The translations under genes and the position numbers were made by a program. Positions 1 to 40,209 of a DNA stretch of 64,000 nt are shown here, piece after piece (position 1 is the stretch's first letter; every line of letters starts with the position of its first letter). The notes under the pieces were generated by a model. That model was not told the origin of the DNA. It saw nothing but the letters and a program-made list of their open reading frames with translations, and ran no database searches. The stretch covers positions 1-64,000 of the forward strand of contig JAUCBJ010000603.1 in assembly GCA_032718475.1 (NCBI GenBank). The letters run 5' to 3'. The DNA is from Nemertoderma westbladi. Lineage: Eukaryota; Animalia; Xenacoelomorpha.

Positions 1-1181
1 AACTGTGATTTTGTATATTTTATAGACTTAAATCCCATTTTCTGGGAGCGGTGTAAAAGCTTCTGTGGGATATAACTGGCCCCTTTTGCTTCGCAATCCA
101 GTTTCCCCCCAGGCGCTGGAATACTCTAAAAAGGTTCTCTAACTGTATATATATTCCCCTCGCCCGCAAGGTACCGTTACAGGTGTTTTAACGGACATAA
201 AAGTCATTCTGCTATATACGTGTTTTGGCGGACATGGTAAGGCAAAAAACCTGTAATGCACCAACTACCTTTCACAGCTTAGCCGTGATGATTCATATTA
301 CGACATCTAACAGCTGGTTGCTGACATGGAAACAGCCATTGGACGCATGGTTCTTTGTTTGGCTTGAGCCAATCAGAGCGATTTTTCCTGTCGACGTGTA
401 GCTTTTCAGCCGATCATAAGGAGAGTGTTCAGTCTTACTGTTTTTACTTGATACTTTGTTGTTATTGCTGTCTAAGCCAGAAACACCGGCCTTTTGGGAA
501 GAACTCTAGTAAAACTGCTTAAATTATCGAAAGTATAAACTGTTACCTAATTAATCAATCGAATCGAAAGAACTCACTAGCTCACTTAATTTAATTGCAT
601 TAATCATATTGTTTGTACTGTTATTTTACCGTCAGTTATTAATTGTACCTATTTGTTGATGGAAATATTGCTCTTTGGATAATACGGATAAATCACCCAA
701 ATTCCCAATTTTCTTGATACACTACAGGTTAGAGAGACCGGCTATACATAACAATTGCGATTTATATTAATGTGGTGTGTATTGAATCCAATGTTATTTA
801 GCAGACCCTACGTGAGTCAATTGCTGCTCTCTTTATGTGTGATCAAATATACTGACGGTCGGCAGAATAGTGTGTATGATTGTGATTGGTAACAAAGTAT
901 TTCCTAAAGAATACGCTTTATACTTCAATCATAAGCAGTATCGTTGCGTTTTAGTATAAGCCTTAGTTCTGTTTAAATAGATAAAGCGCCACGTCCTAAA
1001 GGAACTGTTAATATTTCCCGAAAGCCAATAATATCTGTCAGAGATTAATTATTAACGATCTATCGAATAATACAGTAGGTATACACTGCAACCTTACACT
1101 GCAATAATAAAATTTAAGCATCCGAATTCAGTCTCCCGGGTGTAGATCCATCGGGTGAATGATCGCGCATGGGCTGACTTC
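1..1181 (+). mobile_element. 3' end of a BEL/Pao LTR retrotransposon related to element A (3' UTR, PPT and truncated 3' LTR starting TGTAAAAGC at 52)
   Basis: Bases 1-60 are nearly the exact reverse complement of 3205-3263. 52-1181 aligns, with divergence, to the reverse complement of the element A LTR. It stops about 100 bp short of the LTR end where the satellite begins. Confidence 0.85.
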
Positions 1182-2021: not shown

Positions 2022-3213
2022 TGTTCGTGCTTTTAGACCTTTAGCAGTTTAACCCGCTAATTTTAGGTGTCTTTTAGTTTGTAAATCGACTTTAGCCTAT
2101 GACGAGTATTGGATACACTACATTAGCCAAAGCCAGCCTATGCGCGACCACTCACCCGCTGGATTTACCTGGGAGACTGGATTCGGGGGCTCTGACCTTA
2201 TTGCGGTGTATGCCTTCTGTATTATTCGATTGATCGTTAATATATAATCTCTGACAAATATTATTCACTTTCGGGAAATATTAACAGTTCCCTTTGGACG
2301 TGGCGCTCTAAATATATAAACAGAGCTATGACTTACACTAAACACAACGGGATGGCTAATGATTCACGTATAAGGCGCATTCTTTAGGAGATGCTTTGTT
2401 ATCTGTCACAGTCATGCACACTACCGGTACCGCACAATACTGCACACTGATCTGCCGACCTTCACTAATTTTAGTCACATATAAAGAGAACAGCAATTGA
2501 CCCATGTAGTACCTATGAAATAGCATTAGATTCACTTCAAAACCACTTTAATGTAAGTCGCAATCGTTATATGTAACCGGTCTCTCTTACCTTCAGTATA
2601 TCAAGAAGATTGAGGGTTTGTAATTATTTATCGGTATTCCAAATATAATAATATTCCATCAACAGATATAATGAATAACCGACAGTAAATAGCAGTAAAA
2701 ATGTTAAGGCATAAATTGTTATGATATGTGATTTGGTATGGTATGATTAGTTAAGTAAGATAACAGATATACGTTCTATAATTAAGCCTACTAATGTTGG
2801 GCTAAAGACTGAAAACACAGAGATTCCAAAAGCCGGTCTTCTGGGCTCAGGACAAAATGTAAACATTGACCCATAATGCATTGCGCGATTTCCCGGAGGT
2901 TTCTGTACAAAAAGCAGGAGAATCGCTCTGATTGGTTGACCGAACAAAGAAACACCAGAGAACAAGGGAAAAGCTACACGTGTACAGCTCAGCTGTTAGC
3001 TGTCGTCATAGTAACTACACTGTTTCAAGAGGATCTAGCGCATTGCGTCATAGAATTGCTAATTATATCCGCTAAAGTACACATACAGAAGAAATGGCTT
3101 TTATGTCCTCTAAAACACCAGTACAGTAAGGACACGGCCTTTTATGCCTGTTAAACCAACTACAGAGTACTTTGCGGGGAAAATAACCGGCTAATTCCGC
3201 AAAAGCTTTTACA
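2022..3213 (-). repeat. 3' LTR of element A
   Basis: Direct repeat of 13951-15142, preceded on the minus strand by the PPT-like TTTTCTGGGAGCGG (3214-3227). Confidence 0.95.
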
Positions 3214-3290: not shown

Positions 3291-4931
3291 TTAGTCTTTC
3301 TTACGCGGACGGCGTTTACGCAGTTTTTTGACGCTAGCAAGAGTCCTTTTCTCTTTGGGGCGAGCCACTTTACTAGGAGGGCTGTAACTCCTGGGTGAAG
3401 GGTGCAATACAATTGCATCAGAAGGTTTAGGATTACGATCGGTGTATCCGCCGGTCGAGGTACCTGGTTGATCGATATCAACTTCAGTGGAGCGAGGTCT
3501 AACGGCCTTTAGGGCGCGTCTTAGGACAGCAGCTCCTACGGGTCCTTGACGGGTCGTCTGGACAATGGCGGTAGGTGGACCGTGAGTGGTGAGAAACTTC
3601 CTCGGTTTAATGGTTCTTTCCAGCTCGCGTTCTCGGGCTCGATATTCGTAGGGCCGTCGAGATACTTCCTGTAATTCAGGGTGCGAGTTGATAAATAAAT
3701 CGCCATACTCAGGGTCTTGACGGATGAAATTGATCAACTGATATGAAGTAATATCGTTAGGATTGACGTTCCTGAGATATTTTCGAACAAATTTGGTGGA
3801 AATACACTCACCAACACGCTTCATTAGTTCGTAACTCGGTGTGCGTGTTTTTTGTTCAACAGACGCGAATAAATAAGGATGGAACGCGTAAACTCCCTCG
3901 TAAGAGCGTCCAGGGTAATAGCGATGGCGGGACTCACAATGTAAATCCGCGTTCGCTTCCCAAGCTCGGATGTAGCGCAGGGTAATCATCTCATCTACGC
4001 TTTCTAAATCGCGGTTAAAGGGGCAATTATAACTGGCATGTCCTTTAAGTTGACAGTGGTGGCATTGAGTCATAAATTGGGGGCAGACTGCAAAAATGTG
4101 CGAGTTATTAAGTCTGCAATACGCACAATAGATCTCCATCATCAGTTGTTTGTGGAAATAGGAGCAGGGTATGTCTGAGTCGAACGAGCGTAGGTGATAC
4201 GTCAAACAAATTTCGCTCGAAACTCCCGTAAGTATAGCGAGTAAAACCGTGTTTAGTGCAACGTCTCCGCGGATGTTTAGGTCTTTCCGTTTGTTGGTTG
4301 GGTCTAGGGCACCCATCGCAATAATACCAAAGACGCACGTCTTGTAGGGGAAACGCGAGTGATCTCTCTCCAGTTCACAACACTCCCCCATCTGCTCGAA
4401 GCCATCCGGTACAACAGGTAGCGGTCGATCGGCGGTAAGATACATCATAGTGGAACAGAGCCGCTTGAGTTCCACCATGCGGTCATGATGTATACCTTGA
4501 GGATATCGAGTTTCTAGATTCTGTTGACTGGTAATATTGAGATATGTTTCTCTCAAGAATTCAAGATATTTGTTGAAGTCACTGCGTTTATCCGGCTCTT
4601 CAACATCTTCACTTTCGAGTCGGTTTCGAATAGAATTTTCGTGTTCGAGTCTCAGTTTATCGTTCCGCTTCCGCTGGGTATGATATTTAAATAAAACCAT
4701 TTCCCTTTCGGTGTCTATATCGTCCGTATCGTGTAGGTCGATAGGATGACCAGTAGTTAAGAAGTCCATATACGTACCATTACGATGCGTATAGCGAGCG
4801 GTGAATTTTCTATAGTCCAACTCAAGCGTGAGCTGCTCTTGGGACATTGGCGGTTTGATATAACGACCATCGTCCTCCGCAGCAGTTGGACCAGCATCGC
4901 CGCGTATTAAGCTATCAACAAACGCCTGCAA
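3291..4931 (-). CDS. Extra 3' ORF of element A: 546-aa tandem CCHC zinc-knuckle protein with a basic C-terminus, probably expressed by splicing
   Basis: Uninterrupted ORF containing CAYCRLNNSHIFAVC-PQFMTQ-CHHCQLKGHASYNC and ending KKLRKRRPRKKD. It starts at TTG inside an acceptor-like CTCTACTGTTGCAG|G (AG at 4927-4926). Confidence 0.8.
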   Translation of the reverse strand: MQAFVDSLIRGDAGPTAAEDDGRYIKPPMSQEQLTLELDYRKFTARYTHRNGTYMDFLTTGHPIDLHDTDDIDTEREMVLFKYHTQRKRNDKLRLEHENSIRNRLESEDVEEPDKRSDFNKYLEFLRETYLNITSQQNLETRYPQGIHHDRMVELKRLCSTMMYLTADRPLPVVPDGFEQMGECCELERDHSRFPYKTCVFGIIAMGALDPTNKRKDLNIRGDVALNTVLLAILTGVSSEICLTYHLRSFDSDIPCSYFHKQLMMEIYCAYCRLNNSHIFAVCPQFMTQCHHCQLKGHASYNCPFNRDLESVDEMITLRYIRAWEANADLHCESRHRYYPGRSYEGVYAFHPYLFASVEQKTRTPSYELMKRVGECISTKFVRKYLRNVNPNDITSYQLINFIRQDPEYGDLFINSHPELQEVSRRPYEYRARERELERTIKPRKFLTTHGPPTAIVQTTRQGPVGAAVLRRALKAVRPRSTEVDIDQPGTSTGGYTDRNPKPSDAIVLHPSPRSYSPPSKVARPKEKRTLASVKKLRKRRPRKKD

Positions 4932-5794
4932 CAGTAGAGTATATCTCCCCTGACACCAAGATCATCTTCTATCAACTCAGTCATATCTGCTATATGAGTT
5001 TATTAATATTATAATGAGTTTATATTTAGGCTAGCGGGCGTCGCTGCCTACCCCTCTCTGCCCCCGGACAGTGCAAGATCCTCAGCGCTGGTGTACTTTC
5101 GCCGATGTGCCTATCACCAACGTCGTAGCTGCACAACGACCACAACAAGTCACTCCACCGTCCGTCCCAAAGGCTTAGATATACTTCAGGTTCTTACTGG
5201 AGAGTTAGGGCTACTTTCACAATTGCGACTCGCTACTGTAAACACACTTTAGTCGTAACATTCACCTATAAACGCACAAATTCCACACAACTGTCACAAA
5301 CTGTACACATTCGGGCAATTTGTCCGTTAGTCAGTGCCTTCCAGAATGTCACTTTATTATTATGTATCCTTGGATACTAACAGTGCGCTATTTATTCCCT
5401 ATGCTATTCAATGGGACAAGCTTTCTATTGCTCTTTTAACTTACTTCTAATTCTAGCGTGGTTGTTGCCATGGTGACATTATGGAAAGCTAGCGGTAGAA
5501 TTAGGGTAATTCTCATGCATACAGATCTGGGATGCTATTTAATAGTAATTCTTTAATTGTCAATATCCTCTCTATACATGATTTTATGAATTTTATCGGC
5601 TATTGACTATATATTGGAGATTCTCGCACACTAATACACTTAATAGAGTGAATCTCCGCTCCCATGATCTATTAATTAAAGGAATTTTGGGAATATTATA
5701 AATTGCATGAAAATGACAATTTATTAAATTCATTAAAAATATGAATTTAAATTTATTCCCGTAAATTTTATTATTTAATATTAAATAGACACAA

Positions 5795-6608: not shown

Positions 6609-9600
6609 TTACGTTGGGGAGTCCCTAGATGTTTGTTGGATTAGGGAGGTGGTCGTGGGAAGAGTATCTTGCCTTCCATAGTTTCCGGACAGTTCTCGGT
6701 CTCTTTCCAGTAAACATAAACGACCAACTGGGCGATTGAGCTGCTGTGTCTCGAAGACAATTCCAGGTTTCCTCTTCGTCCTGGAATAGTGACGATAGAA
6801 ACATCGCTTCAAATACACGACGGCCTTACAAAGCCGATTCCAGGATCTATAGTGGTCCATCGCTCCCGGCAGGAGAGGTGAGAGTCCCGGCGAGACGTCT
6901 GGTATTCCAGATCTCCAGTCTCTCTCTCTGATCTCCACAACAGATCGGTTCGCGGTGGGGGAGTTTAGATCCACAGCGTCGTCCCTGGCAATGTGTAATA
7001 CAGACAGATCTATCACGGGTTTAAATAACCTTGATTTACTCGTCCGGGTTTTAGGTTTGACTTTCTCCGCTCCCTTGGCTTGTCTAATCTCAGCCGTGGT
7101 AAGATGGGGAGGCCATTCATCTTCTTTACATAGGAAGTCGGGTCCACCTAACCAGTCTGGAGAATCTGTCAGTTCTTGATGAGTTGCTCCTCTGGAAGCG
7201 ATGTCGGCTAGATTAATCGTCTCGGGGCAATGTCTCCATTGATCTACATTGGAGTTAATATCGTCATTATCTGAGGAGTATGGTGTTCCCTCAGTTGGGT
7301 CGTCTAACTCACTGCTCTCCGCTTCCCATTCACTTACTTGGTATACCCGTTCTTTTGGTAACCTTTCTATGAGAGTTCTACGGGAAGGGCCAGTAAGGTA
7401 CCAACCTACTCTAGTTCTTCCCGCATAGGCTTGTAGTGGTTGCGGTTGAGCAGGCCGTTTCTCCAATGTCTCAAGCGCCTCATGCGCATTTTGGCCGATG
7501 AGTATTTGCACTCCAGGGTAGTCTGTGTTGAATCTAGGTATATTAAGCTGCTGGGTGGAATCGTCCTCATCCCAGTTATAAGGTTCTACTTGGCTGGTAG
7601 CGAAGTTCTTTATCGCCACCATTTTTACTGACCTTATGCTGTGTTCTCCTAGTTCATCCTGGGGGGTGGACAACGCACCTACATAATAATCCGTTATTAC
7701 TGTAGATTTCCAAACCTGCATAATTCCTGACATGTTTAACTTAGTTCGGAACTTGGGTTGTCCAGCAAAGATGTCTTCGGCTAGTTCTTTGTCGATGAAT
7801 GTTCCTGTGCTACCGGAGTCAAGGAGGACGTTCACTGTATAACTCCTTTTAAGTCCGTGGACCCTTAACTGTACTACTGGAAATTCTCGGATTCCTACAT
7901 TGGAAGTTGGTGCTTTCCAAGATGGTTGTCGGTCAGAAGTAGTTAGGGGGAGCTCGCTGTCGGTGTCCTTTCCATACGTAAGTGCTCGATACACTGCGGT
8001 ATTTATCAGGTAACAGGATTCGTTTTCGTCGGAGAATTCGTCCGTATAGAATCCTTCCATCTCAGAACTTTGGTCAGTGTCGTTCACATCACTGAATTGG
8101 ACATGTAGTTCGGACTCACTTACCTGACTCGGGCTGTTTCGATCGAATTCAGTGTGCAACAAGATATGATGTTTTACGCCGCACTTTGCACACCTTGCGT
8201 CGGAATAACAGGTTCGCCGTTGGTGTCCTCGTCTGAGGCAATTATAACACAACCGCTTATCCCACATGACCTCACGTCTGTCCTTTAGTGATTTCCTCAG
8301 GAATTCATCACACGCATTTAAACGGTGGGGCCCGTCACACAGCACACATTTTGGTTTGATGTTACTTACCTTACTTTGGGTAACGTTGTGCACACTCGTT
8401 CTTTCCTTGGGCTTTCTTACATGAATTCTCTTAGGAGACGTAGGAGGAGTTTTTCTTACCTGTTTTCTCCTGTCATTGGTTCGAGACTTGAATTTACTTA
8501 CGTCCTTCGGCGCTTTGTTGTCATAGTGAGATCTTTCAGTGTCTTTCCCGCTGTCTTCCTCTTGAGAAGCCTGGCTTTCGCCGTCATCTGTATAACACAC
8601 TGGTATTACCGTTCTCATAGAAACGGGTTTCTCACTTACCTTGTCTTCCGGTGTCTTCTCTCTGGACTGCCTTAGGAGCTGTAATTTTACCTCTCCATCT
8701 AAGAATGACATGAGATCAGCCATGGTATGGTCTCGTCGTTGTTGTTCCATCATATATAACACTTTCTTGTCCCAGCGTGTACCTACTCCACCCTTGGGCA
8801 AAGTAGATGCTAAGGCTCCTACAACCATAGAATTCTGGTATTCATGAGACTTACCTAACCAATCTAGTTGTCTACAGATCTCCTGAATCTCGTCGGAAAA
8901 CTCTATAATCCCGCTGCTAAGAAACTTTCGGGGCGCCATTAATTTCGCATATAAATACCTAGCTATGTTAGTCCTATTACTATACCTGATGTTCAGTGTA
9001 TCCCAAACTTGTCTTAATCCATCTGGATGTCCAATAAACTTTAACGCCATTAACTTGGGAGATCCTTCCAAGCACTTGATGAGGAATCTAAGTTTCTCTC
9101 CATTAGATAGCACAGAGTTCTGTATGTTATCTTTGTAATATTCATTAAAAGGTAACCATTTCATCTCATCTCCATTGAACTTGACTATCTCTCCCACCTT
9201 TACCGCTTGACGGGCTTCGGTTCTAGCCATTTGACGCGTAAAACTTTCTTGGGCCATCGTGTTATTTAATATCGAGTTATCGGTATATAAATTTCTCGGA
9301 TTATGATCAGGTCTATATGGAATATCATTGTCAACAGGTTTATAATTACCCTTAATAGGGTTTACTATAGGAGTTTCCACTTCGCTAGCAGTATAGATGC
9401 GTGTAGGCTCCACACCTTGCGCATGAAATACTTCAGACCTAACAGGTTGACACATTGTTACAGGGGGTGGTGGTATACCCCTTTGTGTATTTACTAATTT
9501 ATCGCGTTCTAACGCGATACTTTGCTGCACTTCTTGCAACTCTAACCTACTTTCCCTTACTGTGCCCTTGAACTGCTTAACAGTCTCCTGCATCTGCCCG

Positions 9601-10943
9601 AGCAGGAGATCCATCCCCCGCCGTCTCTCATCCACCCACTCGACCGCCGAAGCGGGAGCCGCCAACGTTGTAGCGGGCGGACGAGGGACAACGGGCGACA
9701 AATTATTAATATTTCGCTCGGAGTCCAGAACATGAACTGTCTCCTGGGCTGTTCTGCTGGGCACAGGTAGCTTAGTGCTCAAAGGGAATCTAGAGGTAGG
9801 TTCTGGGAGTACAGGTGTCTCTATCACCGAAGGGGTGGATTCGAGAACAGGCCTAATTATTTCAGGCTCATCTACTATAGTAGGGAGTCTGTCTATTTTA
9901 ATAATTTGGTCTAGGGGTTCTGTACTACCTAAGTCTGTGCTAGCTAGTTGTTTTCGAACAGTTGGGGGCAAATCAAGCAATTTCTGACGTTGGGACATTC
10001 TTCTACGTCTGCTGAGACGAGATCTATTTCCTCCACCTTCAGTATCGGTGGTATCGCCTTCCTCAGATGATGTATATCCTTGTCGTTTGGGAGTAGATCG
10101 ACTCATCATCTGCATTTGACTAGCTGTTAACTGTTTATTGAAGTTGTCCTGCCTCTCTTGAAGATTTTCCAACTCTAGTTGGGTTGTCTCTTCAGATGCC
10201 CTCCGTTCTGCCTCTGCCACTGCCGCTTTTCTTTCTGCTTCGGCCGATGCCACTGCCGCCTTTCTTTCCGCTTCGGCCGCTTTTCTTTCCGCTTCTACTT
10301 CTGCCGCTGCCGCTGCTGCTGTCTTTCTGTCTTCTATACGTTTTTTCCTTACTTGCTCCTCTTGAACCTTAGTGATGCGGATGCTTTCATTGAATTTAGC
10401 TTGGTTCGCAGCTAACCTATCCATATCGATTGCGTCCAACACAAGCTTGGCTCCTTCACTATTAGGGCTAAGTCCATCTAGCCTTCTCCTCAACTCTTCA
10501 TCTCCTACAAAACGTTGATAGTCCGACAGATAGATGTCAATAGCATCCCTCTTATGCGGTTTCTCCACCGTAGCTTCACTTTCCACTTGGGAAAATGTAG
10601 CGTCTGTGGATTCTCCATGGGTTGAGCACTCAGCTAACTGAGATTTCCACGGGGCAGTTCTTTGAACTTGGAGACTCACCCGCTGTAACCAAGTCTTTAC
10701 GGCAACTTGCAACGACGTGTCTTGTTTTCTTTTCGAAGCCTCCTCAAAGGCCGATAGGATTAGTCTGATTCTTAGAATTCTTTCTCGAACTTGATAAAGC
10801 AGCTCTCCCTGCTCTTGAGGTCCTTCTGGTTGTCTAAACAATTGTTCTTCTAATCGCTCCATGGAGCTGAAGAATCCCTGTACGTATCCGGCTGCGGACC
10901 TCTTCCACACAGCTGGATCGATGGTTTCCTTGGTTACTCCCAT
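6609..10943 (-). CDS. gag-pol: BEL/Pao Gag-protease polyprotein with an in-frame deletion of RT and most of RNase H; no integrase
   Basis: DUF1759-like Gag (KFNGDEMKWLPF...EKLRFLIKCLEG), three Cys/His knuckles, protease LLDSGS, then directly the distal RNase H motif QWRHCPETINLADIASRG...WLGGPDFL. Confidence 0.9.
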   Translation of the reverse strand: MGVTKETIDPAVWKRSAAGYVQGFFSSMERLEEQLFRQPEGPQEQGELLYQVRERILRIRLILSAFEEASKRKQDTSLQVAVKTWLQRVSLQVQRTAPWKSQLAECSTHGESTDATFSQVESEATVEKPHKRDAIDIYLSDYQRFVGDEELRRRLDGLSPNSEGAKLVLDAIDMDRLAANQAKFNESIRITKVQEEQVRKKRIEDRKTAAAAAAEVEAERKAAEAERKAAVASAEAERKAAVAEAERRASEETTQLELENLQERQDNFNKQLTASQMQMMSRSTPKRQGYTSSEEGDTTDTEGGGNRSRLSRRRRMSQRQKLLDLPPTVRKQLASTDLGSTEPLDQIIKIDRLPTIVDEPEIIRPVLESTPSVIETPVLPEPTSRFPLSTKLPVPSRTAQETVHVLDSERNINNLSPVVPRPPATTLAAPASAVEWVDERRRGMDLLLGQMQETVKQFKGTVRESRLELQEVQQSIALERDKLVNTQRGIPPPPVTMCQPVRSEVFHAQGVEPTRIYTASEVETPIVNPIKGNYKPVDNDIPYRPDHNPRNLYTDNSILNNTMAQESFTRQMARTEARQAVKVGEIVKFNGDEMKWLPFNEYYKDNIQNSVLSNGEKLRFLIKCLEGSPKLMALKFIGHPDGLRQVWDTLNIRYSNRTNIARYLYAKLMAPRKFLSSGIIEFSDEIQEICRQLDWLGKSHEYQNSMVVGALASTLPKGGVGTRWDKKVLYMMEQQRRDHTMADLMSFLDGEVKLQLLRQSREKTPEDKVSEKPVSMRTVIPVCYTDDGESQASQEEDSGKDTERSHYDNKAPKDVSKFKSRTNDRRKQVRKTPPTSPKRIHVRKPKERTSVHNVTQSKVSNIKPKCVLCDGPHRLNACDEFLRKSLKDRREVMWDKRLCYNCLRRGHQRRTCYSDARCAKCGVKHHILLHTEFDRNSPSQVSESELHVQFSDVNDTDQSSEMEGFYTDEFSDENESCYLINTAVYRALTYGKDTDSELPLTTSDRQPSWKAPTSNVGIREFPVVQLRVHGLKRSYTVNVLLDSGSTGTFIDKELAEDIFAGQPKFRTKLNMSGIMQVWKSTVITDYYVGALSTPQDELGEHSIRSVKMVAIKNFATSQVEPYNWDEDDSTQQLNIPRFNTDYPGVQILIGQNAHEALETLEKRPAQPQPLQAYAGRTRVGWYLTGPSRRTLIERLPKERVYQVSEWEAESSELDDPTEGTPYSSDNDDINSNVDQWRHCPETINLADIASRGATHQELTDSPDWLGGPDFLCKEDEWPPHLTTAEIRQAKGAEKVKPKTRTSKSRLFKPVIDLSVLHIARDDAVDLNSPTANRSVVEIRERDWRSGIPDVSPGLSPLLPGAMDHYRSWNRLCKAVVYLKRCFYRHYSRTKRKPGIVFETQQLNRPVGRLCLLERDRELSGNYGRQDTLPTTTSLIQQTSRDSPT

Positions 10944-11072
10944 CCTGTGTATGTCTTCCCAGGCAGCTTCCGATAAGTCAAACGGGAGTCCGGGTCTGGG
11001 GAAGTTCCATTGCGACTCGACGATAGACTTCAGTTCTTCCCTTGTGTATCCCGCATAACTATCCTTAGTCGA

Positions 11073-13606: not shown

Positions 13607-13950
13607 GTACAATCTGAGCAGGCTTACACGCCTTCTGCTCAATATTGGCCTACAAATAAATAAAACTGACAGAAATAAGTAAGCTCCAAAAGAAACAAGG
13701 GGTGTACAGTCCCTAATCTCTTAAACAGCCTACCGGTATACAATATCACAATCGAATAATACTGCTGTACCTGTACTGCTGTAGGTACTGGTCCGGGTGG
13801 TTAGGTAGTCAGGCCTACTAGGTACCGGTTAACCGGTACTTCAGCTTTATTGCCTACTGCAATACAGAAGCAATATCTGTTATTGTTCTTACCAGAACAA
13901 TAGTAAACTGTATTTATTGCCTACACTGCAATCAGAATCATAACTGTTAT

Positions 13951-15142
13951 TGTTCGCGCTTTTAGACCTTTAGCAGTTTAACCCGCTAATTTTAGGTGTC
14001 TTTTAGTTTGTAAATCGACTTTAGCCTATGACGAGTATTGGATACACTACATTAGCCGAAGCCAGCCTATGCGCGACCATTCACCCGCTGGATATACCCG
14101 GGAGACTGGATTCGGGGGCTCTGACCTTATTGCGGTGTAGGCCTACTGTATTATTCGATTGATCGTTAATATATAATCTCTGACAAATATTATTCACTTT
14201 CGGGAAATATTAACAGTTCCCTTTGGACGTGGCGCTCTAAATATATAAACAGAGCTATGACTAACACTAAACACAACGGGATGGCTAATGATTCACGTAT
14301 AAGGCGCATTCTTTAGGAGATGCTTTGTTATCTGTCACAGTCATGCACACTACCGGTACCGCACAATACTGCACACTGATCTGCCGACCTTCACTAATTT
14401 TAGTCACATATAAAGAGAACAGCAATTGACCCATGTAGTACCTATGAAATAGCATTAGATTCACTTCAAAACCACTTTAATGTAAGTCGCAATCGTTATA
14501 TGTAACCGGTCTCTCTTACCTTCAGTATATCAAGAAGATTGAGGGTTTGTAATTATTTATCGGTATTCAAAATATAATAATATTCCATCAACAGATATAA
14601 TGAATAACCGACAGTAAATAGCAGTAAAAATGTTAAGGCATAAATTGTTATGATATGTGATTTGGTATGGTATGATTAGTTAAGTAAGATAACAGATATA
14701 CGTTCTATAATTAAGCCTACTAATGTTGGGCTAAAGACTGAAAACACAGAGATTCCAAAAGCCGGTCTTCTGGGCTCAGGACAAAATGTAAACATTGACC
14801 CATAATGCATTGCGCGATTTCCCGGAGGTTTCTGTACAAAAAGCAGGAGAATCGCTCTGATTGGTTGACCGAACAAAGAAACACCAGAGAACAAGGGAAA
14901 AGCTACACGTGTACAGCTCAGCTGTTAGCTGTCGTCATAGTAACTACACTGTTTCAAGAGGATCTAGCGCATTGCGTCATAGAATTGCTAATTATGTCCG
15001 CTAAAGTACACATACTGAAGAAATGGCTTTTATGTCCTCTAAAACACCAGTACAGTAAGGACACGGCCTTTTATGCCTGTTAAACCAACTACAGAGTACT
15101 TTGCGGGGAAAATAACCGGCTAATTCCGCAAAAGCTTTTACA
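13951..15142 (-). repeat. 5' LTR of element A
   Basis: Direct repeat of 2022-3213. It is not followed by a TGG tRNA PBS. Confidence 0.95.
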
Positions 15143-18100
15143 GGCGTTTCAGCAACTGTAATAGTGGACTACTGTATATGTGTTTCAGCCACTTTAATAC
15201 TTGTCTATATGCGTTTCAGCAGCTGCAATAGTGGATTATATGCGTTTCAGCCACTGTAATATTAGACTATAGGCGTTTCAGCAACTGTAATAGTGTACTA
15301 CTGTATGTGTTTCAGCCACTGTAATACTTGTCTATATGCGTTTCAGCCACTGTAATATTAGACTATAGGCGTTTCAGCAACTGTAATAGTGGACTATAGG
15401 CGTTTCAGCAACTGTAATAGTGTACTACTTTATATGTGTTTCAGCCACTATGTAATACTTGTCTATATGTGTTTCAGCCACTGTCATAGTTGTCTATATG
15501 CGTTTCAGCAGCTGTAATAATGGACTATATGCGTTTCAGCCACTGTAATATTAGACTATAGGCGTTTCAGCAACTGTAATAGTGGACTACGTGTTTCAGC
15601 CACTGTAAGTGGTCTATATGCGTTTCAGCCACTGTAATATTGGTCTATATGCGTTTCAGCAACTATAATAGTGGACTATATGCGTTTCAGCCACTGTAAT
15701 ATTAGACTATAGGCGTTTCAGCAACTGTAATAGTGGACTACGTGTTTCAGCCACTGTAATAGTGGCCTATATGCGTTTCAGCAGCTGTAATAATGGTCTA
15801 TATGCGTTTCAGCAGCTGTAATAGTGGTCTATATGCGTTTCAGCCACTGTAATAGTGGTCTATATGCGTTTCAGCAGCTGTAACAGTGGTCTATATGCGT
15901 TTCAGCAGCTGTAATAGTGGTCTATATGCGTTTCAGCCACTGTAATAGTGGTCTATATGTGTTTCAGCAGCTGTAATAGTGGTCTATATGCGTTTCAGCA
16001 GCTGTAATAGTGGTCTATATGCGTTTCAGCCACTGTAATAGTGGTCTATATGCGTTTCAGCAGCTGTAACAGTGGTCTATATGCGTTTCAGCAGCTGTAA
16101 TAGTGGTCTATATGCGTTTCAGCCACTGTAATAGTGGTCTATATGTGTTTCAGCAGCTGTAATAGTGGTCTATATGCGTTTCAGCCACTGTAATAGTGGT
16201 CTATATGCGTTTCAGCAGCTGTAATAGTGGTCTATATACGTTTCAGCCACTGTAATGGCGGTCTATATGCGTTTCAGCCACTGTAATATTAGACTATAGG
16301 CGTTTCAGCAACTGTAATAGTGGACTACGTGTTTCAGCCACTGAAATAGTGGCCTATATGCGTTTCAGCAGCTGTAATAATGGTCTTTATGCGTTTCAGC
16401 CACTGTAATAGTGGTCTATATGCGTTTCAGCAGCTGTAACAGTGGTATATATGCGTTTCAGCAGCTGTAATAGTGGTCTATATAAGTTTCAGCCACTGTA
16501 ATAGTGGTCTATATGTGTTTCAGCAGCTGTAATAGTGTTCTATATGCGTTTCAGCCACTGTAATAGTGGTCTATATGCGTTTCAGCAGCTGTAATAGTGG
16601 TCTATATACGTTTCAGCCACTGTAATGATGGCGGTCTATATGCGTTTCAGCAGCTGTAATAGTGGACTATATGCGCTTCAGCCACTGTAATATTAGACTA
16701 TGGGCGTTTCAGCAACTGTAATAGTGTACTACTGTATATGTGTTTCAGCCACTATGTAATACTTGTCTATATGCGTTTCAGCAACTGTAATAGTGGACTA
16801 CTTAATAGTGGACTACTCTATATGCGTTTAGCCAGTGTCATAAGTGGACTACGTGTTTCAGCCACTGTAATAGTGGTCTATATGCGTTTCAGCAGCTGTA
16901 ATAGTGGACTATATGCGTTTCAGCCACTGTAATATTATACTATAGGCGTTTCAGCAACTGTAATAGTGGACTACTCTACATGCGTTTAGCCAGTGTCATA
17001 AGTGGACTACGTGTTTCAGCCACTGTAATAGTGGTCTATATGCGTTTCAGCAGCTGTAATAGTGGACTATATGCGTTTCAGCCACTGTGATATTAGACTA
17101 TAGGCGTTTCAGCAACTGTAATAGTGTACTACTGTATATGTGTTTCACCCACTATGTAATACTTGTCTATATGCGTTTCAGCAGCTGTAATAGTGGACTA
17201 TATGCGTTTCAGCCACTGTAATATTATACTATAGGCGTTTCAGCAACTGTAATAGTGGACTACTCTACATGCGTTTAGCCAGTGTCATAAGTGGACTACG
17301 TGTTTCAGCCACTGTAATAGTGGTCTATATGCGTTTCAGCAGCTGTAATAGTGGACTATATGCGTTTCAGCCACTGTGATATTAGACTATAGGCGTTTCA
17401 GCAACTGTAATAGTGTACTACTGTATATGTGTTTCAGCCACTATGTAATACTTGTCAATATGCGTTTCAGCAGCTGTAATAGTGGACTATATGCGTTTCA
17501 GCTACATTAATATTAGACTAAGACTATAGGCGTTTCAGCAACTGTAATAGTGTACTACTGTATATGCGTTTCAGCAGCTGTAATAGTGGATTATATGAGT
17601 TTCAGCTACTGTAATATTATAGGCGTTTCAGCAACTGTAATAGTGGACTACTGTATGTGTTTCAGCCACTGTAATACTTGTCTATATGCGTTTCAGCAGC
17701 TGTAATAGTGGACTATATGCGTTTCAGCAACTGTAATAGTGTACTACTGTATATGTGTTTCAGCCACTATGTAATACATTGTATATATGCGTTTCAGCAG
17801 CTGTAATAGTGGACTATATGCGTTCCAGCAACTGTAATAGTGGACTACTGTATATTCGTTTAGCCAGTGTCATAAGTGGACTACGTGTTTCAGCCAGTGT
17901 AATACTTGTCTATATGCGTTTCAGCCACTGTGATATTAGACTATAGGCGTTTCAGCAACTGTAATAGTGGACTACTGTATATGTGTTTCAGCCACTTTAA
18001 TACTTGTCTATATGCGTTTCAGCAGCTGCAATAGTGGATTATATGCATTTCAGCCACTGTAATATTAGACTATAGGCGTTTCAGCAACTGTAATAGTGTA

Positions 18101-19240
18101 CTACTATATGTGTTTCAGCCACTGTAATACTTGTCTATATGCGTTTCAGCCACTGTAATATTATACTATAGGCGTTTCAGCAACTGTAATAGTGTACTAC
18201 TGTATATGTGTTTCAGCCACTATGTAATACATTGTATATATGCGTTTCAGCAGCTGTAATAGTGGACTATATGCGTTCCAGCAACTGTAATAGTGGACTA
18301 CTGTATATGCGTTTAGCCAGTGTCATAAGTGGACTATGTGTTTCAGCCAGTGTAATACTTGTCTATATGCGTTTCAGCCACTGTGATATTAGACTATAGG
18401 CGTTTCAGCAACTGTAATAGTGGACTACTGTATATGTGTTTCAGCCACTTTAATTCTTGTCTATATGCGTTTCAGCAGCTGTAATAGTGGATTATATGCG
18501 TTTCAGCCACTGTAATATTAGACTATAGGCGTTTCAGCAACTGTAATAGTGTACTACTATATGTGTTTCAGCCACTGTAATACTTGTCTATATGCGTTTC
18601 AGCCACTGTAATATTATACTATAGGCGTTTCAGCAACTGTAATAGTGGGCTACTGTATATGTGTTTCAGCCACTGTAATACTTGTCTATATGCGTTTCAG
18701 CCACTGTAATATTAGACTATAGGCGTTTCAGCAACTGTAATAGTGGACTATAGGCGTTTCAGCAACTGTAATAGTGTACTACTGTATATGTGTTTCAGCC
18801 ACTATGTAATACTTGTCTATATGTGTTTCAGCCACTGTCATAGTGGTCTATATGCGTTTCAGCAGCTGTAATAGTGGACTATATGCGTTTCAGCCACAGT
18901 AATATTAGACTAAGACTATAGGCGTTTCAGCAACTGTAATAGTGTACTACTGTATATGTGTTTCCACCACTGTGTAATACTTGTCTATATGCGTTTCAGC
19001 AGCTGTAATAGTGGACTATATGCGTTTCAGCCACAGTAATATTAGACTAAGACTATAGGCGTTTCAGCAACTGTAATAGTGTACTACTGTATATGTGTTT
19101 CAGCCACTGTGTAATACTTGTCTATATGCGTTTCAGCAGCTGTAATAGTGGACTACTGTATATGCGTTTCAGCCACTGTAATACTTGTCTATTTGCGTTT
19201 CAGCAGCTGTAATAGTGGATAATATGCGTTTCAGCCTTGT
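15143..19240 (+). repeat. Satellite array (~30-bp monomer with higher-order blocks, e.g. ~450 bp)
   Basis: Visible; near-identical spurious ORFs recur at 17755 and 18208. Confidence 0.95.
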
Positions 19241-20140
19241 GCTAGACTATATACTCAAGAAGGACACGCGCACATAAGGTCATGCATGATATGCTGTACA
19301 GTATATCCTGCTTTACTCGCTGAGTTACCGGAGTTGTAGAATATTACAATTTTCGTATAATAATGACTATTTATTGTACGTTAAATAAAATATGCTTTAT
19401 TTACCGTTCCTCCCGAGATCAGTTATCTACCGACAGAGCGCCGCGAGAGAGGTTGACAAGTCTGACCGAGGTGCGAAATCGTAATCAGCGTGTTTTATTT
19501 ATCGTAAAATATGTAATTTTATTGTTAAATTCATCTTTATTATTATAATTATTAAAAGATATCATTGTTTAATAAGTAATTAAACATTGCACCAGTCACA
19601 CCGCAATTATTCAACGTCCTTATTTGTTGATACCAATGGAAGTTAGTCGTTGTAAGGATTTTAAATTTGTAAATAACTGTTAATGTCGTTCAGAAATAGC
19701 TGAGATATCGGCATTCAAACAGTACAGAACTTTGCATCCGATACAGCCTGCAGGGCAGGCCATTTATTATATTTAATAAATACACAATATCCTGGAGGAA
19801 CATATGTATTTGAAGATTATTAATTACTTGATGTCATTTTACTAGTCGTAGCTAGTCATTAAATAAATAAAATGCACCAGAATAGTATTTATTACAGAAC
19901 GAAGTTGACTGTTTGATCTGCAGTAATCCCCATTTATTTAACTAGGTGAATAATGCAAATCTTATTTACCGTTAGCCCATTGACTGAGCGGTAAATATCG
20001 TAAATTTTAACAATAAATTCAATTTTTGTACAGCCAACTCTTAGCCTATGTGAATCAACATGACAGTTATCACGTGATAAACTATATGTTATATATTTAT
20101 TTTTTGTTTTTTGCGCAGCAAGAGGCATTACTAACTGTAA
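19241..20140. repeat. ~900-bp non-satellite block, copy 1
   Basis: Near-identical to 29735-30634. Confidence 0.9.
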
Positions 20141-23100
20141 TAGTGGACTACTGTATACTGTATGTGTTTCAGCCACTTTAATACTTGTCTATATGCGTTT
20201 CAGCAGCTGCAATAGTGGATTATATGCGTTTCAGCCACTGTAATATTAGACAATAGGCGTTTCAGCAACTGTAATAGTGTACTACTGTATGTGTTTCAGC
20301 CACTGTAATACTTGTCTATATGCGTTTCAGCCACTGTAATATTAGACTATAGGCGTTTCAGCAACTGTAATAGTGGACTATAGGCGTTTCAGCAACTGTA
20401 ATAGTGTACTACTGTATATGTGTTTCAGCCACTATGTAATACTTATCTATATGTGTTTCAGCCACTGTCATAGTGGTCTATATGCGTTTCAGCAGCTGTA
20501 ATAATGGACTATATGCGTTTCAGCCACTGTAATATTAGACTATAGGCGTTTCAGCAACTGTAATAGTGGACTACGTGTTTCAGCCACTGTAATAGTGGTC
20601 TATATGCGTTTCAGCCACTGTAATATTGGTCTATATGCGTTTCAGCAACTATAATAGTGGACTATATGCGTTTCAGCCACTGTAATATTAGACTATAGGC
20701 GTTTCAGCAACTGTAATAGTGGACTACGTGTTTCAGCCACTGTAATAGTGGCCTATATGCGTTTCAGCAGCTGTAATAATGGTCTATATGCGTTTCAGCA
20801 GCTGTAATAGTGGTCTATATGCGTTTCAGCCACTGTAATAGTGGTCTATATGCGTTTCAGCAGCTGTAACAGTGGTCTATATGCGTTTCAGCAGCTGTAA
20901 TAGTGGTCTATATGCGTTTCAGCCACTGTAATAGTGGTCTATATGTGTTTCAGCAGCTGTTAGTGGTCTATATGCGTTTCAGCAGCTGTAATAGTGGTCT
21001 ATATGCGTTTGAGTCACTGTAATAGTGGTCTATATGCGTTTCAGCAGCTGTAACAGTGGTCTATATGCGTTTCAGCAGCTGTAATAGTGGTCTATATGCG
21101 TTTCAGCCACTGTAATAGTGGTCTATATGTGTTTCAGCAGCTGTAATAGTGGTCTATATGCATTTCAGCCACTGTAATAGTGGTCTATATGCGTTTCAGC
21201 AGCTGTAATAGTGGTCTATATACGTTTCAGCCACTGTAATGGCAGTCTATATGCGTTTCAGCCACTGTAATATTAGACTATAGGCGTTTCAGCAACTGTA
21301 ATAGTGGACTACGTGTTTCAGCCACTGAAATAGTGGCCTATATGCGTTTCAGCAGCTGTAATAATGGTCTATATGCGTTTCAGCAGCAGTAATAGTGGTC
21401 TATATGCATTTCAGCCACTGTAATAGTGGTCTATATGCGTTTCAGCAGCTGTAACAGTGGTCTATATGCGTTTCAGCAGCTGTAATAGTGGTCTATATGC
21501 GTTTCAGCCACTGTAATAGTGGTCTATATGTGTTTCAGCAGCTGTAATAGTGTTCTATATGCGTTTCAGCCACTGTAATAGTGGTCTATATGCGTTTCAG
21601 CAGCTGTAATAGTGGTCTATATACGTTTCAGCCACTGTAATGATGGCGGTCTATATGCGTTTCAGTAGCTGTAATAGTGGACTATATGCGCTTCAGCCAC
21701 TGTAATATTAGACTATAGGCGTTTCAGCAACTGTAATAGTGTACTACTGTATATGTGTTTCAGCCACTATGTAATACTTGTCTATATGCGTTTCAGCAAC
21801 TGTAATAGTGGACTACTTAATAGTGGACTACTCTATATGCGTTTAGCCAGTGTCATAAGTGGACTACGTGTTTCAGCCACTGTAATAGTGGTCTATATGC
21901 GTTTCAGCAGCTGTAATAGTGGACTATATGCGTTTCAGCCACTGTAATATTATACTATAGGCGTTTCAGCAACTGTAATAGTGGACTACTCTATATGCGT
22001 TTAGCCAGTGTCATAAGTGGACTACGTGTTTCAGCCACTGTAATAGTGGTCTATATGCGTTTCAGCAGCTGTAATAGTGGACTATATGCGTTTCAGCCAC
22101 TGTGATATTAGACTATAGGCGTTTCAGCAACTGTAGTAGTGTACTACTGTATATGTGTTTCACCCACTATGTAATACTTGTCTATATGCGTTTCAGCAGC
22201 TGTAATAGTGGACTATATGCGTTTCAGCCACAGTAATATTAGACTAAGACTATAGGCGTTTCAGCAACTGTAATAGTGTACTACTGTATATGTGTTTCAG
22301 CCACTATGTAATACTTGTCTACATGCGTTTCAGCAGCTGTAATAGTGGACTATATGCGTTTCAGCCACAGTAATATTAGACTAAGACTATAGGCGTTTCA
22401 GCAACTGTAATAGTGTACTACTGTATATGCGTTTCAGCAGCTGTAATAGTGGATTATATGAGTTTCAGCTACTGTAATATTATAGGCGTTTCAGCAACTG
22501 TAATAGTGGACTACTGTATGTGTTTCAGCCACTGTAATACTTGTCTATATGCGTTTCAGCAGCTGTAATAGTGGACTATATGCGTTTCAGCAACTGTAAT
22601 AGTGTACTACTGTATATGTGTTTCAGCCACTATGTAATACATTGTATATATGCGTTTCAGCAGCTGTAATAGTGGACTATATGCGTTCCAGCAACTGTAA
22701 TAGTGGACTACTGTATATTCGTTTAGCCAGTGTCATAAGTGGACTACGTGTTTCAGCCAGTGTAATACTTGTCTATATGCGTTTCAGCCACTGTGATATT
22801 AGACTATAGGCGTTTCAGCAACTGTAATAGTGGACTACTGTATATGTGTTTCAGCCACTTTAATACTTGTCTATATGCGTTTCAGCAGCTGCAATAGTGG
22901 ATTATATGCGTTTCAGCCACTGTAATATTAGACTATAGGCGTTTCAGCAACTGTAATAGTGTACTACTATATGTGTTTCAGCCACTGTAATACTTGTCTA
23001 TATGCGTTTCAGCCACTGTAATATTATACTATAGGCGTTTCAGCAACTGTAATAGTGTACTACTGTATATGTGTTTCAGCCACTATGTAATACTTGTCTA

Positions 23101-23345
23101 TATGCGTTTCAGCAGCTGTAATAGTGGACTATATGCGTTTCAGCCACTGTAATAGTGACTAAGACTATAGGCGTTTCAGCAACTGTAATAGTGTACTACT
23201 GTATATGTGTTTCAGCCACTATGTAATACTTGTCTATATGCGTTTCAGCCAGCTGTAATAGTGGATCTATATGCGTTTCAGCTACTGTAATAGTGGACTA
23301 TAGGCGTTTCAGCAACTGTAATAGTGGACTAAGACTATAGGCGTT
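20133..23345 (+). repeat. Satellite array, second copy of the ~5-kb duplicated unit
   Basis: Monomer variant order mirrors 15150 onward (e.g. 16738 vs 21753). Confidence 0.95.
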
Positions 23346-26078: not shown

Positions 26079-26142
26079 ACAGTAACCTTCGAATTTGTTC
26101 GTTGACGTTCGAATTTGTAAGACTCTCATTTAAGACTTGACA

Positions 26143-26885
26143 CAGACTATGCCTCACTGAGGCATAGACTATGATCTCACTGAGGCATAGACTATGCCTC
26201 ACTGAGGCACTGAGGCATAGACTATGCCTCACTGAGGCATAGACTATGACTCACTGAGGCACTGAGGCATAGACTATGCCTCACTGAGGCATAGACTATG
26301 CCTCACTGAGGCATAGACTATGACTCACTGAGGCACTGAGGCATAGACTATGACTCACTGAGGCATAGATTATGCCTCACTGAGGCACTGAGGCATAGAC
26401 TATGCCTCACTGAGGCACTGAGGCATAGACTATGACTCACTGAGGGATAGACTATGCCTCATTGAGGCGTAGACTATGCCTCACTGAGGCACTGAGGCAT
26501 AGACTATGCCTCACTGAGGCATAGACTATGACTCACTGAGGCATAGGCTATGCCTCACTGAGGCATAGACTATGACTCACTGAGGCACTGAGGCATAGAA
26601 TATGACTCACTGAGGCATAGACTATGCCTCACTGAGGCATAGACTATGTCTCACTGAGGCATAGACTATGCCTCACTGAGGCACTGAGGCATAGACTATG
26701 CCTCACTGAGGCATAGACTATGCCGCACTGAGGCACTGAGGCATAGACTATGACTCACTGAGGCATAGACTATGCCTCACTGAGGCACTGAGGCATAGAC
26801 TATGACTCATTGAGGCATAGACTATGCCTCACTGAGGCACTGAGGCATAGACTATGCCTCAGTGAGGCATAGTCTATGCCTCACT
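26143..26885. repeat. Palindromic minisatellite, 22/30-bp unit CTATGCCTCA-C-TGAGGCATAG
   Basis: Visible, about 30 units; short inverted copy at 28960-29012. Confidence 0.95.
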
Positions 26886-27334: not shown

Positions 27335-28387
27335 ATGCATAGACATGAAAGTTGTTTGGTTTGTAATAAAGAAATGAGACAAGACAATTTATCTCGTCAT
27401 ATGGAAACACATGGAAAGGAAAAACTAATGGCTCCATTACCAAAAAAATTTAAAAAATCCGAAGATATTTTTAGTGAAGATGAAAAGAAAAAGAGAGATG
27501 AGCGTGATATATTAAATATAAAACAGACAATGGAAAGTAAATTTCATAAAGTTATGAATATTTTGAAAGGGATACAAAAACAGTTACCCCTAGAAAATGA
27601 GGAAAATTTGAGTGAGAAAGATGGAGAAGAAGAGGATGATGAGATGGAGAATGAAAATAGTGAGGGTCAGGATGAAGTTGAAGAGAGTGAAGTTGAGAAC
27701 GAAGAAAGTGAAGATCAGGATGATGATGAAGAAAGTGAAGGTCAAGAAGAGGGTGAAGATAGCGAAGGTCAGGAAGAGAATGAAGAAAGTGAAGAACAGG
27801 AAGAGGATGAAGAAAGTGAAGAACAGGAAGAGGATGAAGAAAGTGAAGGCGGGGAAGAGGATGAAGAAAGTGAAGGTCAGAAAGAGGGTGAAGAAAGTGA
27901 AGATCAGGAAAGTGGAGAAGAGGATGAAAATGATGATAATGAGGAAATAAAGAGGCAATTACTTGGAAATAAGAATCAATTGCGGAAAATTATTAAACAT
28001 TTGAAGGAAAATGAAGAAAATAAAGAGGCGACATTGACCCAAGTCCTAGGAAGTAAAATTAAATTACAGAAATTTATTAAACATTTAGAAGAGAATGATG
28101 AAAATAAAGAAGAGATATTGAGACAAATATTAGGAAACAAAAATCAAATGCGGAAATTTATTAAACAAATGGAAGAAAATGAGGAAAATAGAGAAGAGAT
28201 ATTAAGACAGGTTCTGGGAAATAAAAGTAAATTACTGAAAATTAATGAACAATTGAATAAAATTAAGAAACAGTTGGGTAATGAGGAAGATGAAAGTAAA
28301 GTAAATCAACCAGCTTTTACTAATTTTCGAAGACCTATGATAAAAAACTCTCGTTCAGTATATGCCCGCGCAGGACGACGCTATTGA
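27335..28387 (+). CDS. 350-aa protein: N-terminal C2H2 zinc finger, basic NLS-like motif, long Glu/Asp tract and ~27-aa helical repeats
   Basis: Intact ATG ORF with CLVCNKEMRQDNLSRHMETH, PKKFKK, (EEQEEDEESE)n and about four EEILRQILGNKNQ-type repeats. Confidence 0.8.
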   Translation: MHRHESCLVCNKEMRQDNLSRHMETHGKEKLMAPLPKKFKKSEDIFSEDEKKKRDERDILNIKQTMESKFHKVMNILKGIQKQLPLENEENLSEKDGEEEDDEMENENSEGQDEVEESEVENEESEDQDDDEESEGQEEGEDSEGQEENEESEEQEEDEESEEQEEDEESEGGEEDEESEGQKEGEESEDQESGEEDENDDNEEIKRQLLGNKNQLRKIIKHLKENEENKEATLTQVLGSKIKLQKFIKHLEENDENKEEILRQILGNKNQMRKFIKQMEENEENREEILRQVLGNKSKLLKINEQLNKIKKQLGNEEDESKVNQPAFTNFRRPMIKNSRSVYARAGRRY

Positions 28388-33077: not shown

Positions 33078-33494
33078 TGTGATATTGTATTATGGCATGG
33101 TGTATTATTGGACTGATTAGTATGTATTGTATAGGTTAGGTAGGTATGATATAGTAGTATCTTGTTAGCACCTAGGGTGTGAACAGTCGGTTGTACGATA
33201 GCTGTCAGGGATATAGTCCTGGGGGCAGGGCGCAGTCAGTAGTTATCATTCAGTTTAGTTATTGCGATGACTTACCGGTGTAGGGTTGTCAGTCATGTTT
33301 TGTAGGTAGTTCGTTATTAGTTTCATTGTCTGATTGTATCACATCATTATTTGTTATTCATGTATCTCAATACACAATATACTGATATACTGCAGCTGGT
33401 TTCCTAGTTTTACTTCAGTCTTCTCCAGCTCACCCCTCGAGCGGGATAGTGCGTGGCCGTGGATCCGGGACCGGGCGCAGATAGCGCTTCCACA

Positions 33495-33511
33495 TGGGGG
33501 CTCGTCCGGGA
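33495..33511 (+). other. Primer-binding site for tRNA-Pro
   Basis: TGGGGGCTCGTCCGGGA, 17 of the 18 nt of the classical MLV tRNA-Pro PBS. Confidence 0.93.
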
Positions 33512-33927
33512 GAAGAGAAACTGACAGTCTGACAGGCCTACTGCGCTACCCGCTACCGGAAACAGGTACTCTAACTCTGTCTGGCCTACCAGGCTATCGC
33601 TACCACGACCAACTACCGTACCCATCACTGCATCAGGCAGTCAGACTGTCGGTGGCGGGTCTCTGCAGCTCTGACGATTATTCCACTGTATGCCTGCGCG
33701 TCGACCCGAGCGCAAACGAGCTGGAAGCGTTAACTTTCCCACGGGTAAGCCTTCCTATCGGCAGAAACTGCGTTCCGCTTCTGGTTCTCCTCATCCAGAC
33801 AGCACGGACGAACATTCGTTCCTCTACAAGTCATCGGGAGCTGCTTCAAAGTTGTGTCGTGGTTCTCTCTCGCCCTCGTTACACGGATCGCGACAGCAAT
33901 GGGGATCCTTGAACCGATCAATTTCAG

Positions 33928-34232
33928 GGCCGCCGACTACTCGACGACGAGATTCGCCAACGGTTGCTCCGCCGACTACTCGATGACGGGATTCTCCAAC
34001 AGTTGCTCCGCCGACTACTCACGACGAGATTCTCCAACGGTTGCTCCGCCGACTACTCGACGACAGGATTCTCCAACAGTTGCTCCGCCGACTACTCGAC
34101 GACGAGATTCTCCAACGGTTGCTCCGCCGACTACTAGACGACGGGATTCTCTGACGGTTGCTCCGCCGACTACTCTATGACGAGATTCTCCAACAGTTGC
34201 TCCGCCGACTACTCGACGACGAGATCCGACTA
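33928..34232 (+). repeat. 39-bp tandem repeat (~8 copies) in the Gypsy 5' UTR
   Basis: CCGCCGACTACTCGACGACGAGATTCTCCAACGGTTGCT. Confidence 0.93.
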
Positions 34233-39196: not shown

Positions 39197-40209
39197 CCAT
39201 TGACGCAAATTATGAGACGTAGTCGATGTGACTTGACTGTTTGCTGGTTACCATGGCTACATAGATAAATTGGATTTATTAACAATGAATAACTTTTGTT
39301 TGGAAAAAAAAAATTGTTATCCTGAAATATTTAGATATTGTGATTTTTTTAAATGGATGGATACATGTTTATGATAGATACTGTATGGATACATTTTCAT
39401 GTGATAGATACATGTATTAATTATTTACTTATAGCCTTTATTTATTGTGGCAGTGACACATTTTATGGATTGTACTATGGTCGGTTACTTACGGTGCGAT
39501 TTATAGATTGCAATTATGCTTGATATAGTGTTATTTGGTTACTCATTGTTGTACTCTCGTTGTACGTGTTATTCTTTAGTCATACTGGCGTACGATACAT
39601 GCAGTACGAAATTTCGATTTAGATATTATTGGCCTTAGGCTAGTTGAATGTATTGTTGGTATCGTGCTTCATATACAGTATCTTTATACTGCCGTTGAGG
39701 TAGACTTTACTTGTCGATGTAGTCATTAGACTTGGGGTTTGTAGTTTGTGCGTTCTAGAAACTCGTGGGCGAGTTTTTTTTAGGAAGGGGGATGTGATAT
39801 TGTATTAAGGGATGGTGTATTATTGGACTGATTAGTATGTATTGTATAGGTTAGGTAGGTATGATATAGTAGTATCTTGTTAGCACCTAGGGTGTGAACA
39901 GCAGGTTGTACGGTAGCTGTCAGGGATATAGTCCTGGGGGCAGGGCGCAGTCAGTAGTTATCATTCAGTTTAGTTATTGAGATGACTTACCGGTGTAGGG
40001 TTGTCAGTCATGTTTTGTAGGTAGTTCGTTATTAGTTTCATTGTCTGATTGTATCACATCATTATTTGTTATTCATGTATCTCAATACACAATATACTGA
40101 TATACTGCAGCTGGTTTCCTAGTTTTACTTCAGTCTTCTCCAGCTCACCCCTCGAGCGGGATAGTGCGTGGCCGTGGATCCGGGACCGGGCGCTGATAGC
40201 GCTTCCACA

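Follow-up and report, generated by a model that had tools for sequence, protein, structure and literature searches.

Complementarity between the post-LTR site and the LTR suggests self-primed reverse transcription in BEL/Pao elements of Nemertoderma westbladi and their relatives

Element A and its surroundings

The window, by which we mean the whole stretch of DNA analysed, comprises 64,000 nucleotides of Nemertoderma westbladi (contig JAUCBJ010000603.1 of assembly GCA_032718475.1, positions 1 to 64,000). Element A occupies positions 15142-2022 on the minus strand and has two LTRs of 1192 bp each, which show 11 differences and are 99% identical. The 5' LTR (13951-15142) starts with TG and ends with CA, and the 3' LTR (2022-3213) is preceded by the purine tract GGGAGCGG (3221-3214). 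The target duplication ACGCC is found at 15147-15143 and 2021-2017. Given this 5-bp duplication and the near-identical LTRs, the element is young and its LTR boundary is certain. The TG...CA LTRs, the 5-bp target duplication and the purine tract are all structural features of BEL/Pao elements.

ORF1 (1487 codons, 6609-11072, minus strand) encodes a BEL/Pao Gag and a protease-like region and continues in the same frame into what is left of the RNase H end. The Gag matches DUF1759 with an E-value of 1e-11 and contains Cys/His boxes, and the Gag-protease region matches BEL/Pao proteins with an E-value of ~1e-19. All that is left of pol is a 50-residue remnant of the RNase H (Peptidase_A17) end, while the RT, most of the RNase H and the integrase are absent. 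Judged by this coding content, element A is a non-autonomous BEL/Pao derivative. Another 152 open codons (11531-11073, minus strand) lie in frame upstream of ORF1, separated from it by one TGA, which could be a point mutation or a read-through site.

ORF2 (556 codons, 3291-4961, minus strand) contains Cys/His motifs and has no family match; a protein database search among proteins of near length returned no homologue. The extra frames found behind pol in element A (4961-3291) and in the distant element C (45740-45339, also on the minus strand) share related Cys/His motifs. Their similarity is 26% over 96 residues (E-value 8e-9), and the frame of element C is broken into pieces. No counterpart of this frame was found in the 100 BEL/Pao loci described below. 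The 2.4-kb leader of element A contains a 290-bp tandem duplication and a 120-bp repeat (13606-13024 and 12002-11615, minus strand). A 31-bp satellite with higher-order repeats surrounds element A and the sister LTR E (1168-2030 and 15140-23330), and other tandem arrays are located at 26130-26885 (22 bp), 27590-28270 (9/27 bp) and 60120-60440 (25 bp).

The window holds several further elements. Element C (58021-43678, minus strand, target duplication ACAAT) is a pol-bearing BEL/Pao element whose sequence is distant from that of element A. About 260 bases of its 5' LTR (57564-57304, minus strand), between the segment described below and the LTR end, are missing from its 3' LTR. Element D (59176-31840, minus strand, target duplication ATATG) is a decayed pol-bearing relative of element A with broken RT pieces. 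It carries nested insertions of element C and of the Gypsy element B (33078-40209), and has lost the end of its 5' LTR together with the PBS. E (52-1190) is a diverged sister LTR, 72% identical to that of element A.

The post-LTR site of element A and its complement in the LTR

As had been noticed in the initial annotation, the 5' LTR of element A is not followed by TGG. The LTR ends with ...GCGAACA at 13951, and the next bases are ATAACAGTTAT (13950-13940, minus strand), an odd palindrome that we call unit 1. The annotation had also pointed to a duplicated LTR-end/PBS unit 67 nt downstream, and this unit 2 is indeed present, reading GAACA followed by ATAACAGATAT (13888-13873, minus strand). 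Both units are complementary to a candidate self-primer segment inside the LTR, ATATCTGTTAT (14699-14689, minus strand), which is located 738 nt from the LTR end and recurs in the 3' LTR at 2770-2760. A base-by-base check bore out the reported complementarity of 10/11 for unit 1 and 11/11 for unit 2, for which pairing is predicted on both sides. The pairing begins exactly at the LTR boundary, as was claimed, and this boundary is fixed by the LTR pair and the target duplication. A TGG at ~13896 was considered as the PBS of element A and rejected: it is 54 nt away from the LTR, inside a hairpin loop. ARAGORN and Rfam found no tRNA genes or structured RNA in the window.

Of 1000 dinucleotide-shuffled versions of the LTR, 31 contained a site that fits unit 1 with no more than one mismatch, and one contained a perfect site for unit 2. 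The only LTR site within two mismatches of unit 1 is that at 14699. If only uninterrupted pairing is counted, the run for unit 1 is 7-8 nt long and lacks significance (p 0.12-0.17). A weaker second site (14211-14218, minus strand) is complementary to unit 1 over 8 nt from its base 2 (p 0.12) and is part of a block conserved among A, D and E. The pairing in element A taken alone is thus modest and no more than suggestive. The shuffling result for unit 1 alone leaves some room for a match made by chance, or by a one-off inverted duplication at the DNA level in the AT-rich LTR of a decayed element. We give this explanation the least credence of all, since unit 2, element C and 13 loci outside the window also pair.

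In element C, the first 10 bases after the LTR, GTAATAGAAT (57177-57186, minus strand), likewise contain no TGG and are complementary at 10/10 positions to the LTR segment ATTCTATTAC (57644-57653, minus strand; shuffling p 0.003). This pairing grows by 4-5 bp past a 2-nt bulge, and a TATA-like motif (57727) and TCAGT (57696) are found upstream of the segment. The Gypsy element B served as a control: it has an ordinary TGG-type PBS (33495-33511, plus strand) and its self-pairing is only 3-4 nt. The LTR segment of element D that is homologous to the pairing segment of element A is not conserved, and 8 nt of the homologous segment of E, ATAAACTGTTAC (535-546, plus strand), fit the T allele of unit 1.

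The family of element A is very abundant in the contigs of four sequencing runs. The allele at 13943 that makes unit 1 a perfect match accounts for 39%, 33% and 33% of the summed contig depth in runs X1, X2 and X3, where X1 and X2 are one sample (there are two samples in all) and depth is no copy number. The mismatched allele therefore has the larger depth share at this position, with a possible bias from perfect copies being mapped to unit 2. A commoner mismatched allele fits poorly with strict copying of a primer into the PBS. In all four runs, the depth of the bin 14692-14743 exceeds that of each adjoining bin by a factor of 10 to 38, a hint that this block varies less. One loose end contains a variant PBS that starts with GT, as in the relatives described below, and the 67-nt duplication is absent from one contig of run X2. 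Run X5, which is RNA by guess only, yielded three contigs, all at the LTR end.

Two hairpins are predicted in the leader of element A on the minus strand, one of 9 bp (13902-13881), with a 5' arm that could alternatively pair across the junction of the true LTR end and unit 1, and one of 6 bp (13864-13848). One leader hairpin recurs in the loose ends of run X5. In the fungal GalEa copia elements, a palindrome and a hairpin, the Conserved Hairpin Site, replace the PBS, as described in excerpts of PMC5445492, and element A similarly has its odd palindrome at the PBS position with hairpins following it. The palindrome and hairpins could do the work in element A, as has been proposed for GalEa, with the LTR match being incidental. 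However, neither unit 2 nor the perfect-match allele is palindromic, and the sites of element C and the relatives, which match their own LTRs, are not palindromes either. Furthermore, the authors of the GalEa study found no LTR complement, whereas in element A the complement is the main signal. We regard this explanation as highly improbable, and hairpin priming or chance, even when counted jointly, as very unlikely.

A promoter-like region of element A (14736-14864, minus strand) contains CCAAT (14864) and the initiator-like motifs TTACATT (14791) and TCAGTC (14741), the latter marking a candidate start site. TCAGTC is the sole TCA[GT]T[CT] in the LTR, which also has 16 looser initiator matches. 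The initial annotation was right to caution that no TATA box precedes it, and right in placing its TCAGT 53 nt (inclusive) from the segment end at 14689. The identical spacing is found in element C, but C has four TCAGT motifs there, so the spacing was not used as evidence. The promoter-like motifs are 40-165 nt upstream of the pairing segment. The sister LTRs place a candidate start near 14800 versus 14739 from TCAGT, and both positions are upstream of the segment.

The LTR also contains a predicted intron of 78 nt (14442-14519, minus strand; AAG/GTAAGA ... TTTCATAG), which lies downstream of the pairing segment; the sister LTRs of D and E have GT..AG ends at the corresponding position. No primer made by splicing was found for element A or C (best matches of 7 and 5 nt). 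The calculated stability of the pairing is low: the unit-1 duplex has only -6.2 kcal/mol, and a 35-nt duplex of element A has -14.9 versus -14.0 for the best foreign one. In equilibrium folds of 900-1000 nt of 5' RNA, the probability of the unit-1 duplex is ~0 and that of the unit 2 duplex is 0.1-0.3.

Own-LTR pairing in other BEL/Pao elements

We collected 100 loci in scans with BEL/Pao alignments, the queries being built from the best matches of element C, so that this sample is non-random. The 28 loci with candidate repeats were inspected, nine were dropped because the repeat showed no LTR end, and 19 were kept (the LTR end of L030 was defined via its sister L036). Four of them have a TGG-type PBS (L055, L092, L093 and L097) and 15 do not. 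Six further loci had LTR ends picked by eye and were therefore not blind.

Plain unspliced pairing of 10-11 nt with the LTR was found in three of the 15 non-tRNA loci. In most of the others, a shorter match starts right behind a pyrimidine tract and AG, and joining an upstream GT donor to such an acceptor results in 10-15 perfect pairs, with the best donor being near-consensus each time. The pairing test consisted of a perfect match of at least 10 nt to the own LTR, either unspliced or spliced by donor and acceptor rules that were fixed independently of the PBS. Thirteen of the 15 repeat-defined non-tRNA loci pass (10-15 nt; 12/13 families), and ten of these 13 pair only across a predicted LTR intron, their unspliced matches being 5-9 nt. 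The two that fail are L030, whose sister L036 passes, and L088 (8 nt). L026 reaches 7-8 nt under the fixed splice rules. Three of the six loci with ends picked by eye passed under the fixed rules, and L012 and L079, which also have by-eye ends, pass under a looser acceptor rule. Counting all non-tRNA rows (the 15, the window's three and the six by-eye loci), 18/24 pass versus 2/546 pairings of an LTR with the PBS of a different family. In the five TGG-type rows, own-LTR pairing is only 4-5 nt. A blind scan with the looser acceptor rule gave 10-11 nt in three of 12 fresh loci, with a null of 1 in 256 pairs; the other nine showed no pairing, and many of them may lack an LTR.

Exon 1 ends with CAC in L081 and with TAA in its sister copy L094, and the matching PBS bases are GTG and TTA, respectively, which is a compensatory change. 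The initial annotation had proposed covariation between PBS position and LTR as a check, and this is what is found: across distant BEL/Pao families the post-LTR site tracks its own LTR, and it does not do so in the tRNA-type elements. A host tRNA would keep the PBS constant, as in the TGG-type loci, whereas here it varies by family with the LTR. Such family-specific sequences argue against priming by half-tRNAs as well. Where the PBS matches a junction created only by splicing, the pairing is placed at the RNA level, and a duplication at the DNA level cannot copy such a junction. For the group as a whole, chance and DNA duplication are already largely refuted.

The distance between the LTR end and the start of the pairing core is 0-5 nt throughout, and the core is perfect over 10-15 nt. 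The segments end with AC at their 3' side in 16 of 18 elements and with AT in element A and L072. Their distance from the LTR end is 738 nt in element A, which is the weakest and least clean case of the set, and 45-193 nt in the other 17. Imperfect pairing often runs on past the 5' side of the segments, an indication that the RNA continues upstream of the core.

The latter feature would also be expected of a long-range helix between R and leader that functions in packaging, dimerisation or shielding, in which case some host RNA or tRNA fragment would be the primer. On the other hand, a structural helix does not account well for the position of the core next to the LTR end, its perfect pairing and its change between families together with the LTR, and with a host primer the PBS should stay constant, as in the TGG-type loci. 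We consider a structural role quite unlikely.

A somewhat less remote, though still unlikely, alternative is priming in trans by a short LTR transcript that is distinct from the genomic RNA and ends at the segment. Such a transcript would result from premature termination or processing and could come from solo LTRs as well. This would suit the abundance of the family of element A, and the long loop and poor cis fold of element A would not matter. In L081 and L094, AATAAA is found directly after the pairing segment, 45-49 nt from the LTR end, as would suit an RNA ending there. However, the bases behind the segment vary among families, mostly without a poly(A) signal, and the pairing stops at a fixed AC or AT, as expected of a cut made on a duplex.

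Proposed mechanism and relation to known systems

The observations described above are best accommodated by self-priming. Element A probably uses part of its own 5' RNA to initiate reverse transcription, with enzymes that would come from a helper element. Transcription would start ~40-100 nt upstream of the segment, which would then be inside R and not at the cap. The segment would pair with unit 1, either in cis or from a second RNA copy, and the RNA would be cut just 3' of the duplex, probably by a helper RNase H as in Tf1, leaving a 3'-OH at the LTR boundary. By analogy, the primer may be retained and copied back into the PBS during plus-strand synthesis in each cycle. If so, the PBS would follow its own LTR in each family and equal the predicted exon-exon junction in many relatives.

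The end of an LTR is set by the point where minus-strand synthesis begins. Hence, the parent RNA of this copy of element A would have been primed at unit 1. As the LTR pair ends at unit 1, we infer that this unit, and not the perfect unit 2, marks the last start of copying; unit 2 would be a spare duplicate.

For the group as a whole, we lean towards the view that a large part of BEL/Pao primes with an internal piece of 5' RNA that is cut tens to hundreds of bases from the cap. In many families the spliceosome would join the two halves of the primer, those of elements A and C being unsplit. If this is true, the PBS is a splice junction recorded by reverse transcription, and replication is licensed by splicing. 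RNA processing would be tied to the start of reverse transcription, and a cut in an RNA duplex away from the cap would be required. The failure of PBS finders on many animal BEL/Pao elements would be explained as well, and a simple rule would be at hand for locating the introns and 5' ends of BEL/Pao LTRs.

Self-priming is established in one Ty3/gypsy group and predicted in a few plant lineages. The Tf1/sushi elements have no tRNA PBS, and ~11 bases after their LTR are complementary to their own LTR RNA (parts of PMC7175516 and of bioRxiv 10.1101/2022.12.06.519325). The likeness to Tf1 that the initial annotation had drawn is therefore valid for the lack of a tRNA PBS and the own-LTR complementarity of ~11 bases (10/11 and 11/11 in element A), a likeness that extends to Tf2. 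It probably does not extend to the position of the primer: Tf1 uses its capped first 11 bases, RNase H cutting after base 11 (part of PMC7175516), whereas the candidate starts of element A are ~40-100 nt upstream of the segment. Its primer is probably internal, and a predicted intron splits that of many relatives. Furthermore, Tf1/sushi are Ty3/gypsy chromoviruses, whereas A, C and D are BEL/Pao, and the RNase H cleavage and the three-duplex 'pretzel' are features of Tf1.

The Tcn1 chromoviruses and the plant TAR copia elements (Houba, Osr-1) resemble element A in that self-priming was deduced from sequence and a tRNA PBS is lacking, but they are not BEL/Pao, and excerpts of PMC6317226 mention no splice-assembled primer for them. 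Primer retention figures as a title in the reference list of the same paper. The tRNA-primed BEL/Pao elements (Belpaoviridae) share with element A the DUF1759 Gag, the 5-bp target duplication and the TG...CA LTRs. They differ in having a TGG-type PBS, as in the four TGG-type loci named above, while element A is without TGG, RT and integrase.

A full-text literature search, outside the scope of which lie older subscription papers and Repbase reports, found no self-priming in BEL/Pao. The main-text portions of PMC554778, PMC3118150, PMC6238403, PMC8556966, PMC2774666, PMC8220671 and PMC13155389 contained no PBS analysis of such elements. Self-priming of BEL/Pao probably works like that of Tf1/sushi but outside that group, and an earlier mention is possible. 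A third superfamily would then self-prime, and would do so in another way, with an internal primer often built by splicing.

In a quick tree, element D belongs to a 21-row branch (SH-aLRT 93) with 15 self-type and no tRNA-type rows, while C and L089 are at an open fork outside of it. A second quick tree has a 31-row branch (SH-aLRT 95) in which all 22 labelled loci are non-tRNA. The self-type branch includes trematode, fish, mollusc, cnidarian and tunicate proteins. A similar host range is described for the Sinbad/Sailor lineage in parts of PMC8556966 and PMC3118150, and by host range our guess, from a tree without a named reference element, is that the branch is a Sinbad/Sailor-like clade.

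Scans of metagenome and viral contigs with the LTR-end pattern, and of viral contigs with BEL/Pao proteins, gave no matches. The loci L080-L100 are BEL/Pao elements, several of them complete with both LTRs, that were found in contigs filed as bacterial genomes (L097 in a Wolbachia chromosome). These contigs are likely host DNA in bins or assemblies.
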